From sequence record NC_047979.1: DNA of 64,000 nt; one strand, 5' to 3'. A program made the translations under genes and the position numbers. Numbering within the stretch: the first letter of the stretch is position 1; every line of letters starts with the position of its first letter. The notes under the pieces were generated by a model. That model saw only the letters and a list, made by a program, of their open reading frames with translations, made no database searches and was not told the DNA's origin. Positions 1 through 7,649 of the stretch are shown piece by piece. The DNA is from Escherichia phage Gostya9.

Positions 1-215
1 GTATAGATAACACTTGGTCTATTATCCTTTTTAACGGACCAACGTAGAGCTTCTACAATAGCCGTGAGTTCCATCTCATTATTTGTAGTTTTAGGATTAT
101 AACCAGATTTAGAGCCTAAACGATCGTCATTATCATCATAGACAATAAAACCCCAAGCACCCGGGCCAGGGTTGGACTTACAAGCACCATCTGTGTAAAT
201 GTGGAAAACCGACAT
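1..215 (-). CDS. rnh: Ribonuclease H, N-terminal part (gene runs off the window start)
   Basis: Minus-strand translation from ATG at 215 gives [28 protein letters not shown]...[13 protein letters not shown], the RNase HI TDG(A/S)C..NPGPG..MEL signature. Not in the ORF track because it is truncated by the window edge. Confidence 0.6.
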
Positions 216-217
216 TA

Positions 218-727
218 TTATTCCCCTTCGTAGGTATCTTCAGGCCAATGTGATGGTTCACTATCTGCTGGTTTATACATTCTAGGTAGTGCTAATAGTG
301 AGAGAAAAGCTGGCTCACTAAAGTAGTGAGTATATTCTTTAAACTCTGAGAACCACTCAGTTACCTCTTGAATATCCTCTTCACAAGGTGAGAGAGTTTC
401 TATGGAACAGGTTGCACCCCTCTTAGGTTTGGTTTTATAATAGTCATCTAGTACTCTTTGAACCTTCTGTGCTGTTTCCTCAGCAGTTAAAGATTCATCA
501 CACTCTATACTATCTATCTCCTCTGCTAGATAGTCCGGCCATTCCTCTCCCTGACCTACTCCATCATAACGAATGACTGGCTGGCAGTCCTCATCACTAT
601 TTAGTGCATGTAGTTCCATATAATGGAACGTTTGGGCTATTACATCTAGCAGCAACTTTAGTTGCTCTTTTGAGGCTGTCCCTTCTTTGTACTTAATATA
701 GGCATTAGCTACTTTTGGATTAATCAT
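218..727 (-). CDS. Hypothetical early protein (169 aa), acidic
   Basis: Intact ORF with its own upstream promoter-like element and RBS (aaggat); no motif recognised. Confidence 0.5.
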
Positions 728-761
728 ATTCGTATTTATCCTTTGTTTATTAATTGAGTAT

Positions 762-790
762 ATTATATTTAAATTTCACTAAATAAGCAA
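762..790 (-). promoter_or_regulatory. Sigma70-type early promoter, TTGCTT-17-TATAAT on minus strand
   Basis: Reverse complement reads aaatttcatTTGCTTatttagtgaaatttaaaTATAATat; same family as the other early promoters in this window. Confidence 0.45.
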
Positions 791-828
791 ATGAAATTTA
801 AGTATAATAGCCCCGAAGGCTATTTAAA

Positions 829-1602
829 TTATACAAACTCATACGCCGGGAACTTAGGTGAACGAACTCTATTACCTATAGTCGCTGTGGAACACCCCAA
901 TGCTCTAGCTGCTGCACTCATACTAACGTATTCCACACCATCCACACGTACTGCCTTAAAGTGAGTAGGAATGGGTGTCTTTCCCTCTCTAATACTTTCT
1001 TGGTACTGCTTAGAAGCCTGAGACATCTTGCTCAGAGCCTCTTCAGTGTGCTTCTTCCCATAAAAGGAGTTATTCTCACCTGTTCGATCCCTACAACTAT
1101 TACAGTACTCCCCATTAGTGTTATTAAGGGCTAGTAGGGAACCACAATCAATACATGTTTTTGAGCGAGTAGATACTCCTCCCTTCCAGTTATAGTTTAG
1201 CTCGCCTGGTCTACTCCACCGGGCTTTTCTTTCTTCTTTAGATAAGGACGCTATATGCTTTCTAACACTCTCACTAATTCTCTTAATAATCTCCTCTCTT
1301 CGAGGATTATTTGTGAGATTATCCCCGCCACCGTAGCTACCTATGTTGAACTCTGCTCCCAGCTCCTTAGCCCACTCTTCTTCTAGTAAGAACTGCTGAT
1401 CTACTTCTTCAGTAGTATCTAAGATGTCAAATACAAAGTCTTGCTTTCCGGTTTTATCATAAGCTCTCTGTAGAAAAGCGTTATGGTGGTTCCCCTTACT
1501 TAGTGAGTAAAAATGTTTACGCTTTCTAGCCTCAATATCCTTAGTCGATCCAACGTACTGTCTTCCCGTAGATAGCTGAGTTATACTATAGATGTAAATC
1601 AT
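829..1602 (-). CDS. GIY-YIG homing endonuclease (free-standing, Seg/I-TevI-like)
   Basis: N-terminal IYIYSI...YVGST GIY-YIG block; C-terminal Cys cluster CIDCG..CNSC and a helix-turn-helix-like tail typical of phage GIY-YIG endonuclease DNA-binding modules. Start overlaps the thyA stop. Confidence 0.8.
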   Translation of the reverse strand: MIYIYSITQLSTGRQYVGSTKDIEARKRKHFYSLSKGNHHNAFLQRAYDKTGKQDFVFDILDTTEEVDQQFLLEEEWAKELGAEFNIGSYGGGDNLTNNPRREEIIKRISESVRKHIASLSKEERKARWSRPGELNYNWKGGVSTRSKTCIDCGSLLALNNTNGEYCNSCRDRTGENNSFYGKKHTEEALSKMSQASKQYQESIREGKTPIPTHFKAVRVDGVEYVSMSAAARALGCSTATIGNRVRSPKFPAYEFV

Positions 1603-2432
1603 GCTGCCATTTTACCAGTTAATTTAGGGTGATGTTTATATTCTTCCAGGATAAAGTCTTTGGGTGTTAGGGCCAGAAGATCTTCTAAGGAAGAGAAGTT
1701 TGGCAGTACTAGTCTAGGTAGCTCCAGGGGTTCTCTAGTTACTTGCTCCTTTACTTGGTCTAGGTGATTTAAGTAAATATGAGTGTCCACAAGATGTCCT
1801 GTTACTGACCCAGGTTTCTTTCCTGTGAGTGCAGCTAAAATATGACAGAGTAAGGCATAGCTAGCTATATTAAATGGTAATCCTAGAAATACATCACAAC
1901 TAACCTGGTACCATGTTAAGTGTAGGTGTCCATCTCTTTGGTTTACAGAGAACATTACGTGGCAGGGAGAAAGCACAACGTCGTCAAGTTTTGCAGGATT
2001 CCATGCTGAGACTACCATTTTTCTATTATGAAAAATATCGGATTTGATATCCTCGATTAGTTTCATAATCTGGTCTGTACCGAAGAAGTCTCTCCAGTTT
2101 TTCCCATAAATATATCCCAGATAACCTTCAGTGTAGCCTTTTTCGACCCCTTGTTTTTCATAATTAGGATGCCAGATAGTACGCTTCTCTCCTCTAGTCC
2201 CATGAGTATACTCTTCTAGATCATACAAGTTAGTAGATCCTGAGAGGAACCACAACAACTCCCCTACCACGGATTTCCACGCTAGTGCTTTTGTTGTTAC
2301 TGCTGGAAACCCTTTAGTAAGGTCAAAAGAGACAATATTATTTAGGGAAGAGATAGTACCTACACCTGTCCGGTCAGACACGTGGGTTCCCTCAGATAAA
2401 ACTTTATTAATTAAATCAATATACTGTTTCAT
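1599..2432 (-). CDS. thyA: Thymidylate synthase
   Basis: Catalytic LSPCHVMF motif plus GLPFNIASYALL block; length typical of ThyA. Confidence 0.9.
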   Translation of the reverse strand: MKQYIDLINKVLSEGTHVSDRTGVGTISSLNNIVSFDLTKGFPAVTTKALAWKSVVGELLWFLSGSTNLYDLEEYTHGTRGEKRTIWHPNYEKQGVEKGYTEGYLGYIYGKNWRDFFGTDQIMKLIEDIKSDIFHNRKMVVSAWNPAKLDDVVLSPCHVMFSVNQRDGHLHLTWYQVSCDVFLGLPFNIASYALLCHILAALTGKKPGSVTGHLVDTHIYLNHLDQVKEQVTREPLELPRLVLPNFSSLEDLLALTPKDFILEEYKHHPKLTGKMAA

Positions 2433-2965
2433 TAATAAGTAACCAATTCCTGTACAAATCGCAGGCTGTTATCACTGTTTGCGCCAACTGCATAGACTAA
2501 TCTAGTGGATTCATAGTTATAATCCAGTATCATACTATCTAGGTATGTATCTGCCTCTAGCTTCTGTTCGCTAAAGATTGTAGATACAAAAGCACTTTCT
2601 ATATGCCCATGTTGGTACATTTCTAGAAGAAGATTAGCTCCGCCTAGAACTACTGTTTGCTGATCTTTTAGAAAAGTAGGTAATGTATCACCTATCATTG
2701 ATATGGGAGTGTAAATATCATGTGTAATATCGTCTGGCAGTGGACGATCAGCACGAATAAATAGGTCAGAAGTTCCAATCATACGTTCCCTAACGGCGTA
2801 TGGAAGAGCTAAATAAGTACCTGCCCCAATAATAATATTATCAGGATTTAGTACATCTAATTGTGAATAAAAAGCATCTAGTTCTTCTTTAAAAGAACCC
2901 CAGGGAAGCTTACCTCGGAGGCCGAACTCCCCATTCGGCCCAACTGCATACATTGCACTAATCAT
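2432..2965 (-). CDS. frd: Dihydrofolate reductase
   Basis: N-terminus MISAMYAVGPNGEFGLRGKLPW resembles DHFR; 177 aa; sits immediately downstream of thyA as in phage thy-frd modules. Confidence 0.75.
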   Translation of the reverse strand: MISAMYAVGPNGEFGLRGKLPWGSFKEELDAFYSQLDVLNPDNIIIGAGTYLALPYAVRERMIGTSDLFIRADRPLPDDITHDIYTPISMIGDTLPTFLKDQQTVVLGGANLLLEMYQHGHIESAFVSTIFSEQKLEADTYLDSMILDYNYESTRLVYAVGANSDNSLRFVQELVTY

Positions 2966-4107
2966 AGGAAATCTCCAAATTCATTGCCCAGATCTTTTAG
3001 AGTATCAGTAGAAGTCTCAGTTACCTGACCTACACGATAGGCTGCACCAATCTGGATTTCTTGTGGAGCAGGCTGTAGAGAAGTAGTATCCAACCAGTTC
3101 ATGATCCACGGAATAGGGTTTTTAGTGATTACTGGTAAGTGACTAGGCCATTCTACGCCAATGTGCATAAACGCGTTACGTCCCACAAAGTACAGGTACT
3201 CTTCTAGCAGTTCTGCATTCAGACCAATCAGACTGCGACCTTTGAAAATGAAATGACCCCATTCAATTTCAGTTTTCAGAGTTTTCAGGAGCTGTGCTGG
3301 TGCTTTAGCCACTGCCTCATCTACCAGATCTTTGTCAAACTGCTGGAACATAATCTGGATGATTGTTTTAGACATCTGGGTGTGCAGAGCTTCATCTTTA
3401 GCGATCAATTGCAGATTTTTAGCGATACCTTGCAGAATATCGTTCTCTGCTAACGCAAAGGTGCACGCAAAGGATGCGTAGAATTGCATTGCTTCCAGAC
3501 CGTAGATTGCAAAATAAGCATCTAACAGTTTAGCCTGAGTTTCACGCTTAACTTCAGGGAACTCAGTTTCTGGGTACGTATTGTCACCACGATGATCACG
3601 TACTGCGATGAAATACTGACCTAACTGGTACAGTTCATCGAACAGCTCAACAGAATCTGCGATACGTGCAAATGCTTCTTGGTTTTTAGTTACAGAATCA
3701 ATAAATTCTGCCGGATCAGTCAGCACATTACGAATAATGTTACTATAAGCACGGCTATGCAGGTCTTCAAAGTAGCTCCACTGCTTGAGCATACCTTCTA
3801 GTTCTGGACGGCTTACCAGCGGCATAATAGCTGCTTCAGGCGCTCGACTGATAAAGGAATCAGTTTGAGTCTGCCATGCTAAGTTCAGGAGTGTGATTTC
3901 CTGAATTTCACGTGGGAGATTGGGCCATTGTTTCTTATCGGCTTCTAAACTGATTTCTGTCTCAGTCCAAAATTGCGAGCGTTGCAGAAGTGCCAGACGC
4001 TCTAATTCTGGGTGTGCTACGCGTACATAATCTGCGATACCTAGAGAATCGCCCAGGAAAAGATCAGCGTTAGTATGATCCCAATTCAGGTTTAGTAAAG
4101 TAGTCAT
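2962..4107 (-). CDS. nrdB: Ribonucleotide reductase class Ia beta subunit
   Basis: 381-aa ORF with ferritin-like diiron architecture (EALH ligand block); adjacent to nrdA. Confidence 0.85.
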   Translation of the reverse strand: MTTLLNLNWDHTNADLFLGDSLGIADYVRVAHPELERLALLQRSQFWTETEISLEADKKQWPNLPREIQEITLLNLAWQTQTDSFISRAPEAAIMPLVSRPELEGMLKQWSYFEDLHSRAYSNIIRNVLTDPAEFIDSVTKNQEAFARIADSVELFDELYQLGQYFIAVRDHRGDNTYPETEFPEVKRETQAKLLDAYFAIYGLEAMQFYASFACTFALAENDILQGIAKNLQLIAKDEALHTQMSKTIIQIMFQQFDKDLVDEAVAKAPAQLLKTLKTEIEWGHFIFKGRSLIGLNAELLEEYLYFVGRNAFMHIGVEWPSHLPVITKNPIPWIMNWLDTTSLQPAPQEIQIGAAYRVGQVTETSTDTLKDLGNEFGDFL

Positions 4108-4138
4108 TGATTTTCCTCTTTCTCACTATTTCAGGAAT

Positions 4139-4167
4139 ATTATAGCAAATCAGATAGCGATTAGCAA
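4139..4167 (-). promoter_or_regulatory. Early promoter TTGCTA-17-TGcTATAAT on minus strand, upstream of nrdB
   Basis: Reverse complement reads aaattttacTTGCTAatcgctatctgattTGCTATAAT; extended -10 and conserved A/T-rich -35 flank. Confidence 0.5.
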
Positions 4168-4180
4168 GTAAAATTTCAAA

Positions 4181-4212
4181 GAAAAAGGAGACCCGAAGAT
4201 CTCCTTATTTTT
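4181..4212 (-). terminator. Hairpin terminator between nrdA and nrdB
   Basis: aaggaga-cccgaaga-tctcctt stem-loop flanked by A/T runs on both sides. Confidence 0.45.
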
Positions 4213-4213
4213 A

Positions 4214-6544
4214 TTAGATAGTACAACCACCAGAAGCACAGCCCGCTGCTTCTTCACCAGCCCCACCACCATTTGCAGTGTTGAAGTTAGCATAATACCA
4301 AGTCTTCCAACCATATTTAACAGCAGTCATGAAATCACGAACTACTACTGGGCCAGGAATAATTTCATTCTCAAACTTGGTGTAGTCATAGTACATATTC
4401 GTACTGATAGACTGACTGAAGAATTTCTGCATAGTTGCTACCCATTTGATCCATTCAATACGATCCACATCATAAGCCAGTTTATAGCTCATGAGAGTAT
4501 CCCAATCAGTTGCACCTGGAGCGATTGCAATTACTTTATTCACTGCACTACCCTTGATAGATACAATCTTACGAGGTGGTTCAATAGAGTTAGTAACCCC
4601 CAACAGAACGGAAGAACTTTCTCCAGGCATCTGCGCAGTCAGAACAGAGTTACGCATACCGTATTTCAGAATATCTGCACGCAGAGATTCCCAATCCATT
4701 TCTAGACCTACGGATACCAGCTCATCAACAGTTTTCTTATACGTGTCGATTACCAGTGTTCCTTTAGATGGTTTAGTACGATTAAACCATTCACACGCAC
4801 CTTGCTCTTTGGCTAGACGTACAGAGGCTTTATGCAGGAAGTAAGACAGTTTTTCAGCTTCACGATGAATCCAGTTACGTGCTTCAACGCCTTCATAAGC
4901 CAAACCTTCCGCCGCCATTGCACCTGCTGCGTTCATCAGACCAATACCAACGTTACGACGTTTCTTAGCTGTATATTCCATAGTTGGGAACGGGTAATCC
5001 TGAATTTCAATGATGGTATCAACGAATTTCAGAAGAATATAGCAAGTTTTTTCCCACTCAGCCAGAGATTCCATGCGTCCAAGTACAACACCACCTAAGT
5101 TACACAGAGATACTTCCCCAATATCCTCCGGCTTCATTTGATCAAGTTGTTCTTTTGTTTTATACAGCTCTGTAATGTGGTGGAATGGGCGTGTAGGCTG
5201 AGTAATTTCAAGGCATAAGTTACTCATACGGATCGGATCAAGGAAGTTACCGTGACGATTAGATTCCCCGATGTGGTGCGCATACATACGTCCTGTTTCC
5301 ATTCGGATACGTAGCCAAGTATCTAGGATTTCTTTTGCAGAGACTTTAGGAGCTGCTGGAACTGTTTTTCCTTCGTGGTCGATCTTTGTAAGAGATGCCA
5401 CACGTTTCTCCGCTGCCGCATAGATTTCTTCAAATTTAGCCTCGTCATCACTATAAAACGCTTCATGAACTTCTGGAGCATAGAAGTATGACATTAGCGT
5501 AATATCTTCATTTTTCAGATAACGTTTTAACAAAAGATTATTAAAGTTCAGAGAATAATCCATCTTATCGATTTTATTCTCGTCTGTAGCACGTTGTTGC
5601 TTAACCTGCATCAACTGAATGATTTCAGGGTCAAAGTAAGGATAGGATACAGTAGCAGAACCACCACGAGTTTGCTGAGTATTAGCCTTTACTGATCGGT
5701 CAATGTGTCGATAATATGGCAGTTTTCCGGAATGCGGGAATGCCCCGTTTCGCACCGGATCAGCAATTGATCGGCTTTCAAGATGATACCCGATTCCCGC
5801 TCTGGCTGCAACCATTTTGAAGACGATGTGTTCGGCTGTGTCGATTGAATCCAATGTGTCAGTGGAATCAACGAGGCAACAACTAGCAAATCCACGGTCA
5901 CTAGAGCGCAAGCCAACCAATGGCGGCGTAGGAACGTTGATCTTGTGGAGTGACATTGCATTGTAGAGATCGATTGCATCTAGAATTGTCCAGTTAGGTT
6001 GAGATAGCATCGCCATTGCCATGCCCATATAGGCAAACTGCGGGGTTTCGTAAATTTCGCCAGTTGCGATATTACGACGGGAATACTTATCAAAGAATTG
6101 TTTCAGTCCTCCACTAGTGAAAAGACGGTCGCGATCATGGTCGATAACCTGATTCAGAGCCTCAAACTGCTCATCGGTAATCCATGCACTCATGTCTTCC
6201 CATGCACCTACACTAACCATATGATCGTGGAAGAAGCGTAGAGAAGGCGGTTCGAAGGAATCATAAAGGCGTTTACGCATCTGCGCAAGACGTAATTCCT
6301 TTGCTGGCACGTCGTATGCTGGGTTATCTTTGATAAGACTTTCAGCAGCTTTAATTAACGCATCCATCAGAGTATCGGAATCTACAACCCCTTTAGGTAG
6401 AGTTTTTTGAGCAGCCATAGTAATGGCTGACCAACTTACATCAACTGTTTTGCAACCATACTCTGCCCAACCATTGAGTTTTTCAGGAGCAAAGTCTTCT
6501 ACAGTACCGTCACGTTTAATTACTTTTTCAATGCGATGGCTCAT
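4214..6544 (-). CDS. nrdA: Ribonucleotide reductase class Ia alpha subunit
   Basis: ATP-cone N-terminus (MSHRIEKVIKRDGTVEDF), large catalytic body, C-terminal Cys pair (CASGGCTI). Start moved to the ATG at 6544, which has an aaggaaaa RBS; the track ORF extends to 6649. Confidence 0.9.
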   Translation of the reverse strand: MSHRIEKVIKRDGTVEDFAPEKLNGWAEYGCKTVDVSWSAITMAAQKTLPKGVVDSDTLMDALIKAAESLIKDNPAYDVPAKELRLAQMRKRLYDSFEPPSLRFFHDHMVSVGAWEDMSAWITDEQFEALNQVIDHDRDRLFTSGGLKQFFDKYSRRNIATGEIYETPQFAYMGMAMAMLSQPNWTILDAIDLYNAMSLHKINVPTPPLVGLRSSDRGFASCCLVDSTDTLDSIDTAEHIVFKMVAARAGIGYHLESRSIADPVRNGAFPHSGKLPYYRHIDRSVKANTQQTRGGSATVSYPYFDPEIIQLMQVKQQRATDENKIDKMDYSLNFNNLLLKRYLKNEDITLMSYFYAPEVHEAFYSDDEAKFEEIYAAAEKRVASLTKIDHEGKTVPAAPKVSAKEILDTWLRIRMETGRMYAHHIGESNRHGNFLDPIRMSNLCLEITQPTRPFHHITELYKTKEQLDQMKPEDIGEVSLCNLGGVVLGRMESLAEWEKTCYILLKFVDTIIEIQDYPFPTMEYTAKKRRNVGIGLMNAAGAMAAEGLAYEGVEARNWIHREAEKLSYFLHKASVRLAKEQGACEWFNRTKPSKGTLVIDTYKKTVDELVSVGLEMDWESLRADILKYGMRNSVLTAQMPGESSSVLLGVTNSIEPPRKIVSIKGSAVNKVIAIAPGATDWDTLMSYKLAYDVDRIEWIKWVATMQKFFSQSISTNMYYDYTKFENEIIPGPVVVRDFMTAVKYGWKTWYYANFNTANGGGAGEEAAGCASGGCTI

Positions 6545-6625
6545 TTGGTTTTCCTTTTTATGGTTATCAGAATTTAGGAAATAGTTTACTTTATTCTCAG
6601 TCATTTGGCAAATAAAATTTTCTGA

Positions 6626-6660
6626 TAGAAAAGGCCCGGGTATTTTCATACCCAGGCCTT
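6626..6660 (-). terminator. Hairpin terminator upstream of nrdA
   Basis: 12-bp stem aaggcccgggta / tacccaggcctt with a 6-nt loop, followed on the minus strand by a T-run. Confidence 0.5.
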
Positions 6661-6688
6661 CTGTGTTGTCAGTCTAGTTTTTGGCCAC

Positions 6689-6886
6689 TTAAGTTCTCAG
6701 CAGAATATCTATTGAGGTACTTAGTTCATTATAATTGAAGGGCCGATTTGGATTTGAGGTTACAATTTTCCACGCTAGGGTAGTCTTAGGACTATCTTCC
6801 CCTTCCTTACGTGTAATCATATTAGCAGCGCTCAATGAGGTATGATGAATTTTAGTTTTTCGGCGTAGATGTACAACGTTTCCCAT
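6689..6886 (-). CDS. Small basic hypothetical protein (about 65 aa)
   Basis: ATG at 6886 lies 1 nt after the phoH stop with a ggggaagg RBS; followed by a terminator. The track ORF 6689-6955 overlaps phoH and is probably over-extended. Confidence 0.3.
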   Translation of the reverse strand: MGNVVHLRRKTKIHHTSLSAANMITRKEGEDSPKTTLAWKIVTSNPNRPFNYNELSTSIDILLRT

Positions 6887-6887
6887 A

Positions 6888-7649
6888 CTACACCTTCCCC
6901 ATGTCTTTAAAAATATCGTAGAATGCTTTAGACTCAGCAGAACGAACGTTATCAATCAATTCGATCATTGAGAATGGGGCATTTTCATACTTCTCATAAA
7001 CTTCCATAAGAAGTGCTAGACCTGAGTCACCTTTAATGTCTTTTTGGGCTATATCTCCACAGATAATTAAACGGCAGTCTTGTCCTACACGAGTTAGGAG
7101 ACAAACCATTGCCTCAACGGAAATATTCTGAGCTTCATCGACAATTACATAGGAGTTGTTGAAAGTTCTGCCACGAGCATGTTCTATAGCCAAAAATTTA
7201 ATTTTCTGACGTTCGACATATCCCTTATAGGCGTGATCACCGATGGCCCATTTCATACCATCAGCTATTGGCTCCAACCAAGGCTCTAGCTTTTCTGCTA
7301 GATCACCAGGAAGCATACCAAGAGACTTACCTAGAGGTTCATTAGGACGGACGAGAATCACTTGCTCAATATCTGAGTGAGTGTCTACGAGTTCCTGAGC
7401 TGCAAGAACGGACGGGATAAAGGTTTTACCAGTACCTGGCTCACCGATACCCACAGTCACTGTGTTGTTCTTGATCATATTGATATATGATTTTTGCTCG
7501 CGGTTTTTACCTACTAGGGATTTAGCAACTGGGTTGACGTAATCATTAGAAAAATCAGCCTGAATTACGTTACTCTCATATTTGTTGCCACGCTTTCTTG
7601 AACCATTGCGGTTCTCTCTTTTTTGACGTGCTTTTCCCATAAATAACAC
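6888..7649 (-). CDS. phoH: PhoH-like ATPase
   Basis: Walker A GIGEPGTGKTF and Walker B IVDEAQN; typical PhoH length. Confidence 0.9.
   Translation of the reverse strand: MLFMGKARQKRENRNGSRKRGNKYESNVIQADFSNDYVNPVAKSLVGKNREQKSYINMIKNNTVTVGIGEPGTGKTFIPSVLAAQELVDTHSDIEQVILVRPNEPLGKSLGMLPGDLAEKLEPWLEPIADGMKWAIGDHAYKGYVERQKIKFLAIEHARGRTFNNSYVIVDEAQNISVEAMVCLLTRVGQDCRLIICGDIAQKDIKGDSGLALLMEVYEKYENAPFSMIELIDNVRSAESKAFYDIFKDMGKV

Follow-up and report, generated by a model that had tools for sequence, protein, structure and literature searches.

A free-standing I-TevI-family endonuclease gene and its divergent thymidylate synthase partner: a putative mobile cassette of T5-like phages

I-TevI, the endonuclease encoded by the group I intron of the phage T4 td gene, is the model GIY-YIG homing endonuclease as well as a genome-editing tool, and comparison with its natural relatives reveals how such enzymes have come to choose their targets and to live inside or outside introns. 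The enzyme mobilizes its own intron, reaching back to cut within the sequence CAACG, which corresponds to codons Gln165-Arg166 of thymidylate synthase (TS) (PMC5009752). By its description, I-BmoI, the GIY-YIG endonuclease of the Bacillus mojavensis thyA intron, targets the homologous stretch of TS DNA, and both enzymes need a G at the cleavage motif, a base critical at the I-BmoI site (PMC5009752).

Two other arrangements bear comparison with the locus described here. The Seg endonucleases of T4 (for example, SegF and SegG) are free-standing GIY-YIG proteins, present in some phages and absent from close relatives; the presumption is that they cleave a neighboring gene in its endonuclease-less form and spread, taking flanking DNA along by co-conversion (PMC2988022). 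In collaborative or trans homing, free-standing endonucleases target the insertion sites of introns (Bonocora and Shub 2009; Zeng et al. 2009; mobE/I-TevIII; PMC2988022).

The locus lies in a 64,000-nucleotide stretch of Escherichia phage Gostya9 (NC_047979.1), referred to below as the window, whose DNA matches identify it as part of a Tequintavirus genome (T5-like, Demerecviridae). The window endonuclease resembles I-TevI in its link to the thymidylate synthase gene of a phage, in its domain order (GIY-YIG, zinc finger, NUMOD3 helix, and helix-turn-helix), and in its catalytic residues, which are the same. Whereas I-TevI is intron-encoded, the window gene follows an unbroken thyA, its start codon overlapping the thyA stop, and the unit that appears to move includes an entire thyA xenolog rather than an intron. 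The window gene shares its free-standing state and patchy distribution with the Seg genes, and by analogy the locus functionally resembles Seg-type intronless homing with marker exclusion. By sequence, however, the enzyme falls in the intron-endonuclease subfamily (TIGR01453) and not among the Seg proteins, and its putative co-converted tract, as known from sequence, takes in a whole gene of high divergence, with limits that coincide exactly with those of the open reading frame (ORF). The likeness to collaborative homing is that this endonuclease family occurs both free-standing beside its target gene and inside the introns of that gene, with the introns of its relatives sitting directly after the Arg166 codon; the difference is that Tequintavirus thyA has no endonuclease-less intron to collaborate with. 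A search of the literature found no paper on the window endonuclease or on GIY-YIG elements in Tequintavirus, though existing annotations call the gene a "putative homing endonuclease" (phage SelmaRatti) or a "homing endonuclease" (SP01). The features of note are the apparent co-mobilization of a whole thyA xenolog, a series of I-TevI family members that runs from free-standing to intron-borne, and a synthase that lacks Arg166.

The endonuclease gene and its product

Genes in this part of the window are arranged in the order nrdA, nrdB, dhfr, thyA, endonuclease, orf169, RNase H. The endonuclease gene (829-1602, minus strand) was recognized from the ORF list and from matches in Pfam, NCBIfam, PHROG, and PDB, and encodes 257 amino acids from an ATG start. 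It follows a thyA xenolog (1599-2432, minus strand; 277 amino acids; Pfam Thymidylat_synt 1.3e-82) that forms one continuous ORF, and it begins at the stop of that ORF: the endonuclease ATG (1602-1600) overlaps the thyA TGA (1601-1599) in a shared ATGA (1599-1602, minus strand; plus-strand bases "tcat"). The gene is therefore free-standing and not encoded by an intron, as I-TevI proper is. Rfam found no intron in window positions 1-7000 even at E<=1, while the relative in phage PA02 gives an Intron_gpI match of 69 bits. A hidden or degenerate intron around the endonuclease was also considered and rejected, the only Rfam match over the same interval and threshold being a chance snoRNA-like one. 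No paralogues of the endonuclease were found by tblastn across all 64 kb.

The protein is built in modules that follow I-TevI along most of its length. An N-terminal GIY-YIG nuclease domain (about residues 1-95; 1318-1602, minus strand) aligns to I-TevI residues 5-87 and matches the Pfam GIY-YIG model at 1.6e-8 (35.1 bits against a cut-off of 22.6). The linker contains a four-cysteine zinc finger (Cys150, Cys153, Cys167, and Cys170; 1093-1155, minus strand), which is followed by a NUMOD3 minor-groove helix (residues 173-194; 1021-1086, minus strand; Pfam NUMOD3 5.6e-8) with a GENNSFY motif that aligns to I-TevI, and by a C-terminal helix-turn-helix DNA-binding module (residues 212-253; 844-969, minus strand). 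The zinc finger and the helix-turn-helix were both aligned to the I-TevI structure 1i3j, and their Pfam matches (I-TevI_ZnF, 3.9e-4; I-TevI_DNA-bd, 4.3e-6) fall slightly under the curated cut-offs. When PDB was searched with phmmer, residues 4-86 matched the I-TevI catalytic domain (1mk0, 1ln0) and residues 126-251 its DNA-binding domain (1i3j, E 4.9e-10). Over its full length the protein scores 101 bits against the NCBIfam model TIGR01453, "group I intron endonuclease" (cut-off 56), and it matches PHROG 314, "homing endonuclease," at 1.5e-34. Both the nuclease domain and the modular DNA-binding region that define the I-TevI subfamily (TIGR01453 / PF01541+PF22635+PF07460+PF20987) are thus present. 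The first motif reads YIY rather than GIY.

The catalytic set of I-TevI (Y6, Y17, G19, R27, H31, H40, E75, and N90) has its counterparts in Y5, Y16, G18, R26, H30, H39, E74, and N86, all invariant across an alignment of 16 sequences. An earlier note on this DNA had described a free-standing GIY-YIG homing endonuclease next to thymidylate synthase, overlapping the thyA stop codon; the Pfam, TIGR01453, and PDB matches, the uninterrupted thyA, and the ATGA at 1602-1599 bear this out, and the Tyr, Arg, and Glu residues on which it had made the case depend (here Y5, Y16, R26, and E74) are intact. Judged by everything that sequence can test, the protein is a GIY-YIG homing endonuclease. Its nearest characterized relative is I-TevI, at 35% identity over 96% of its length, and its best phage matches outside the T5-like group are the I-TevI of T4-like phages and the td-intron enzyme of Melville. 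Identity to I-TevI in the DNA-binding domain is likewise low, at about 35%, and conservation of the target is therefore not assured. Both genes of the pair are under purifying selection: dN/dS is 0.06-0.18 for the five intact copies of the endonuclease and 0.03-0.14 for the linked thyA.

Signals for expression of the endonuclease are modest. No hairpin of the I-TevI kind, which sequesters the ribosome binding site, was detected over the start codon, folding of 1560-1680 (minus strand) giving z=+1.1, no better than shuffled sequence. There is no evident strong Shine-Dalgarno sequence before the gene, and a search for a dedicated promoter returned one weak sigma-70-like match (1638-1609, minus strand), promoter-like sites being as frequent as expected from shuffling. 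Another promoter-like site lies at 4167-4139 (minus strand); in the block of nrdB, dhfr, thyA, and endonuclease, the endonuclease comes last. The 22-nt junction between thyA and the endonuclease gene, AAAATGGCAGCATGATTTACAT, is nearly identical in three lineages (the window, L014, and L026) whose proteins are otherwise 20-40% diverged. Taken together, the want of an evident strong Shine-Dalgarno sequence, the overlap with the stop codon, and the conserved junction suggest that the endonuclease is expressed at a low level and is translationally coupled to thyA.

A thyA-endonuclease cassette among T5-like phages

Endonuclease DNA occurs in 8 of the 238 T5-like records that match this 3-kb region, and always at the 3' end of thyA. 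Five phages with an intact copy (SelmaRatti, SP01, SP1a, Kenya-K36, and Kenya-K42), one RefSeq duplicate (that of SP01), and two records of phage SP3 make up the eight; a scan of IMG/VR for further carriers returned SP01 and SP3 only. The remaining relatives hold an intact alternative allele, so the locus is fixed and its content polymorphic, as the earlier note had anticipated for the thyA flanks of the T5 family. In the endonuclease-minus phages EC100, chee24, K38, and DaisyDussoix this allele is a thyA of 840 bp (T5-type below), which differs greatly from the thyA of the window (about 54% amino acid and 55-60% nucleotide identity).

The boundaries of the divergent DNA coincide with gene edges. 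Nucleotide identity between the two kinds of thyA is 50-70% (60-bp windows) over the whole ORF and reaches 95-100% immediately past the thyA ATG. A blastn reading that confined the foreign DNA to the 3' two-thirds of thyA was rejected, since sliding identity and protein alignment show the entire ORF to be divergent. On the right, homology with the endonuclease-minus phages breaks just after the shared cat/ATG at the border of dhfr and thyA; on the left it breaks exactly at a TAA stop (829-831), which ends the endonuclease in carriers and thyA in non-carriers. The resident thyA is thus swapped out exactly, from codon 2 to the stop codon. Beyond the left boundary is a conserved intergenic segment (759-828) with a hairpin at 807-823, common to endonuclease-plus and -minus phages, which forms the left homology arm. 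At the right end, the window is 96-100% identical to other carriers up to about position 2485 and then only 64-86% identical in dhfr, which places the crossover of the Gostya9 cassette between 2432 and 2485, an interval that comprises the 3' end of dhfr and the thyA start.

The endonuclease is always accompanied by its own divergent thyA, and this, with the exact junctions, argues for replacement of one ORF by another rather than insertion behind a common thyA. From these comparisons the mobile unit would be a 1.6-kb cassette of divergent thyA and endonuclease and not the endonuclease ORF alone. The suggestion in the earlier note that the overlap marks a mobile insertion therefore largely survives: mobility is supported by the polymorphism (8/238) and by a young cassette in older flanks, while the unit is a pair of genes that replaces the resident thyA. 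Its further idea, that the enzyme may target thyA alleles of related phages during co-infection, forms part of the scheme proposed below.

Indeed, the cassette is far more uniform than its surroundings. Among cassette carriers, mean dS is 0.073 for the endonuclease and 0.058 for thyA, compared with 0.42 and 0.37 for the adjoining dhfr and nrdB genes, a synonymous divergence 5-7 times lower; among endonuclease-minus phages, thyA itself has a dS of 0.35. So large a difference implies that the cassette is much younger than the genomes that hold it, and the phylogenetic incongruence expected of an element younger than its flanks is indeed seen. The cassette sits beside at least four left-flank gene contents, namely orf169 (the window and SelmaRatti), a 282-bp ORF (SP01), the 282-bp ORF with one of 204 bp (SP1a), and nothing (K36), and beside two dhfr allele types. 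These left flanks recur in endonuclease-minus phages, K38 being 98% identical to window positions 1-831 and chee24 having the 282-bp ORF. In the same way, the window dhfr is 98% identical to those of the endonuclease-minus phages EC100 and chee24 and only 81-86% identical to those of other carriers, and the replication-gene backbone of the window is nearest endonuclease-minus phages, at about 93-96.5% (HildyBeyeler, 94.6%; DT571/2, 96.5%). Low divergence within the cassette, together with differing flank alleles among its carriers, points to horizontal spread.

There are also signs of decay. In SP3 the equivalent of window positions 958-1547 has been lost between two CAGTACGT repeats, leaving a frameshifted endonuclease stub next to an intact cassette-type thyA, and P0002, a metagenomic copy of the endonuclease, is frameshifted. 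These degenerate copies are consistent with a homing cycle, and invasion of different backgrounds, upkeep by selection, and occasional decay would together make up the picture expected of a homing element. Alternatively, selection could have swept the thyA allele through these phages by ordinary recombination, with no drive from the endonuclease, and so have left the cassette uniform. Moreover, with the cassette in only about 3% of records, such drive, if it exists, is not overwhelming.

Relatives of the endonuclease and a synthase without Arg166

All 14 endonuclease homologues with a context that could be examined are linked to thyA, six as free-standing genes and eight in an intron or split thyA, and on this evidence the family appears to be dedicated to thymidylate synthase. 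Four of the free-standing genes (L014, L026, L018, and L035) lie directly downstream of thyA in the same orientation; the endonucleases of L014 and L026 are 60% identical to that of the window and likewise start in an ATGA overlap. The other two, those of Acinetobacter phage AB1I1P (L013) and L022, converge on the 3' end of thyA. Homologues in an intron or split thyA are those of T4/RB5, Melville, PA02, L015, L016, L021, L023, L024, and L025. The introns of T4 and Melville are annotated, and that of the phiKZ-like phage PA02 is confirmed by Rfam; those of L015 and L016, which Rfam did not confirm at its gathering threshold, are assigned from a split thyA with 1.03-1.13 kb of intervening sequence alone. 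In a rough neighbor-joining tree, built without bootstrap and silent on the direction of transitions, free-standing and intron-borne forms are interleaved.

The split genes share a common insertion point. Exon 1 ends in CAGCGT, the codons for Gln165-Arg166, in all seven non-T4-type split thyA genes (PA02 included), and exon 2 resumes at Ser167 in six of the seven (that of L024 was not located), with 1.03-1.13 kb between exons. The T4 intron lies 21 nt downstream of this position.

At the same two codons the thyA of the cassette departs from the norm. It is a bona fide member of the ThyA family (PF00303; Pfam, 277 bits), and its alignments contain the catalytic Cys146 along with Glu58, Tyr94, Asp169, Asn177, His207, and Tyr209. 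Where the endonuclease-minus T5-type genes have CAACG(T/C), however, it reads CAG GTT (Gln-Val; 1902-1907, minus strand; E. coli numbering). Two of the four phosphate-binding arginines (Arg21, Arg126', Arg127', and Arg166), a set regarded as invariant, are replaced, Arg166 by Val and Arg127 by Lys. Arg166 is held to be fundamental, an R166Q mutant being nearly inactive, and the natural loss of any of the four was previously unreported (PMC6005164). The residue is kept in 115 of the 115 next-nearest TS sequences and in 147 of 149 representatives of clusters at 50% identity. Both exceptions (Ser and Ala) have Arg127Lys and Ser144, which suggests a wider TS lineage without Arg166; the one with a readable context has no endonuclease. 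The closest relatives of the cassette synthase form a 277-residue clade with Val or Pro at position 166. The Val166 members (the Tequintavirus cassette, L014, and L026) are all linked to an endonuclease, and within Tequintavirus this type of thyA is confined to the 8 records with the endonuclease or its remnant. The Pro166 members, from the Pectobacterium T5-like phages My1 and DU_PP_V and from L027, have none.

Because Gln-Arg codons necessarily spell CNNNG, a gene that loses Arg166 also loses the G on which I-TevI and I-BmoI depend. One attractive reading, which we nevertheless regard as doubtful, is that loss of Arg166 may make the linked allele uncuttable, so that a TS without the residue would serve, or would have been selected, as an immune harbor for a free-standing I-TevI-type enzyme that drives replacement of thyA as a whole gene. 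Were this so, a TS would function in the absence of a residue considered indispensable for catalysis, and hosts would have a way around endonucleases aimed at "unmutable" codons. Much speaks against it: the endonuclease-plus allele still contains a CNNNG (CCAGG), shifted by 1 nt, TS genes without Arg166 occur without any endonuclease (My1, DU_PP_V, L027, and P0229), and the free-standing endonucleases of L018, L022, L013, and L035 adjoin thyA genes that keep the residue. The last two facts also weaken a related proposal, that a free-standing endonuclease beside thyA requires the loss of Arg166. Whatever its relation to the endonuclease, the locus exposes a TS lineage without Arg166 that is worth biochemical study.

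A proposed route of spread and its alternatives

The interpretation we favor, and consider probable, is that the window gene encodes an active free-standing endonuclease of the I-TevI lineage and that thyA and endonuclease home together as a cassette. What is inferred here is that the enzyme cuts DNA, where it does so, and that the linked allele is immune. In such a scheme the endonuclease would share a transcript with thyA, and the ATGA overlap would probably couple its translation to that of thyA. During mixed infection the enzyme would cut both strands of the T5-type thyA that resides in a phage without the cassette, most likely at or near the Gln165-Arg166 codons (CAACG), since I-TevI cuts there and the introns of relatives sit there. 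That cleavage falls specifically at these codons of T5-type thyA is a narrower claim, to which we give somewhat less than even weight. The site would lie about 310 bp from the endonuclease gene, a distance typical of free-standing endonucleases (PMC2988022). With the two thyA alleles only 55-60% identical in nucleotide sequence, only the conserved flanks would allow repair to be resolved: the 3' end of dhfr on one side and the intergenic terminator region on the other. The entire cassette would then be copied, a version of intronless homing in which a whole gene is co-converted, and this would account for boundaries that match the ORFs exactly. The thyA of the cassette, presumed to be a cleavage-resistant allele, would be spared from cutting because its sequence differs.

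The endonuclease may instead be a passenger, the divergent thyA without Arg166 having spread by ordinary homologous recombination in conserved flanks, through selection or drift, while the enzyme has some other role, such as attack on unrelated competitors or regulation of expression, and does not cut T5-type thyA. The synthase lineage has a life independent of the endonuclease, as My1, DU_PP_V, L027, and P0229 attest; boundaries at gene edges are usual in ordinary phage mosaicism, and the rarity of the cassette fits this account too. Yet the endonuclease is under purifying selection, every homologue examined is linked to thyA, and the Tequintavirus Val166 allele never occurs without the endonuclease or its remnant. 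Since, in addition, the gene has been kept beside the R166-less type of thyA, with a conserved ATGA junction, across 40% amino acid divergence, we think the passenger account unlikely. A current lack of activity, with the gene an inactive relic in the course of decay, would accommodate the degenerate SP3 and P0002 copies and the want of both a strong Shine-Dalgarno sequence and a dedicated promoter. The window copy, however, is not truncated and retains all its catalytic and zinc-binding residues, and a dN/dS of 0.06-0.18 is hard to reconcile with decay, which makes this explanation very improbable.

It is also conceivable that the endonuclease is active and homing but has its target outside Gln165-Arg166, which might be another part of thyA, the 3' end of dhfr, the intergenic DNA, or some remote locus. 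For free-standing endonucleases, a cut site hundreds or even thousands of base pairs away from the gene is common (PMC2988022), the identity of the DNA-binding domain to that of I-TevI is low, and the Arg166-keeping thyA genes that adjoin the endonucleases of L018, L022, L013, and L035 indicate that resistance need not map to that codon. The putative co-conversion tract, on the other hand, consists of thyA and endonuclease only, and its junctions lie no more than about 55-70 bp from where the genes end, which argues for a break inside or very near thyA, and characterized and intron-borne members of the family converge on the Gln165-Arg166 codons (PMC5009752). A target elsewhere thus seems rather improbable to us.

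If homing of the cassette is indeed the explanation, an endonuclease apparently moving a complete gene of an essential pathway between phages would provide a concrete mechanism for allele replacement in the T5-like group. The locus and its relatives also form a natural series in which one enzyme family and one target gene are found in free-standing co-oriented, free-standing convergent, and intron-borne arrangements, the last at two insertion sites. With SelmaRatti and endonuclease-minus T5-like phages both in the BASEL collection, the proposed pathway by which a free-standing endonuclease leads to a mobile intron can be tested on this series in phages that can be grown. Two of the homologues in split thyA genes, L015 and L016, are themselves T5-like, by synteny or by a Phage_T5_A2 gene, so both the free-standing and the intron-borne lifestyles are found among relatives of the window phage.

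Thymidylate synthases beside the endonuclease and its relatives

The thymidylate synthase (TS) encoded by the thyA gene of the window (1599-2432, minus strand) carries Val in place of Arg166, a residue held to be invariant; the codon lies at 1902-1904. All 115 of the nearest TS sequences have Arg166, as do 147 of 149 TS cluster representatives. Arg166 is likewise missing from the enzymes of the Pectobacterium phages My1 and DU_PP_V, of two lineages with endonucleases of 60% identity (L014 and L026, both with Val), and of loci L027 and L028. Related lineages carry Pro, Ala or Ser at position 166. In the window TS, Arg127 is replaced by Lys and the remaining catalytic residues are all kept. The dN/dS of thyA from the cassette (thyA plus the GIY-YIG endonuclease gene) is 0.03-0.14.

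Arg166 is retained at three loci with other free-standing relatives of the endonuclease, and there the normally conserved FLGLPFN stretch is altered, reading FLGSGYN in L018 (thyA at 3057-3965), PIGVGMGN in L013, from Acinetobacter phage AB1I1P (3777-4652), and FLGAPFN in L035 (2501-3343). These variants may represent other routes to changing the endonuclease binding site.

Endonuclease remnant and cassette flanks

Phage SP3 retains only a remnant of the endonuclease gene (L006, 1997-2253), lacking the segment equivalent to window 958-1547. A pair of direct CAGTACGT repeats bounds the deletion that produced it, and what is left is a 25-codon frameshifted stub adjoining an intact cassette-type thyA. 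By comparison with all nine relatives, the hairpin that follows the endonuclease stop codon in the window (807-823) has lost 1 nt; its stem measures 6 bp (atagcc/ggctat) rather than 7 bp.

Beyond it lies orf169 (218-727, minus strand), whose acidic 169-aa product has neither a Pfam nor a PHROG match. The gene content at this position, flanked by RNase H and thyA/endonuclease, is hypervariable: relatives have a 201-bp ORF, a 282-bp ORF, 282-bp and 204-bp ORFs, 546-bp and 387-bp ORFs, or nothing. On the other flank, dhfr (2432-2965, minus strand), compared with loci L001-L009, falls into two allele types of about 83% nucleotide identity. The window has the type found in the endonuclease-minus relatives EC100, chee24 and DaisyDussoix (97-98.5%); the second type is present in every cassette carrier except the window.

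Selfish elements at other loci

The nrd cluster of the window (4108-6649) is free of the selfish elements seen in three relatives: an intein in nrdA of SelmaRatti, a homing endonuclease gene between nrdB and nrdA of SP01, and, in SP1a, an HNH endonuclease gene that overlaps the end of nrdB. An apparently intron-borne relative of the window endonuclease occurs on L016, a T5-like metagenomic contig (Phage_T5_A2 gene), which also has a full-length match to the Rfam family for permuted tmRNA (RF04321, 82 bits; 7012-7368, plus strand).
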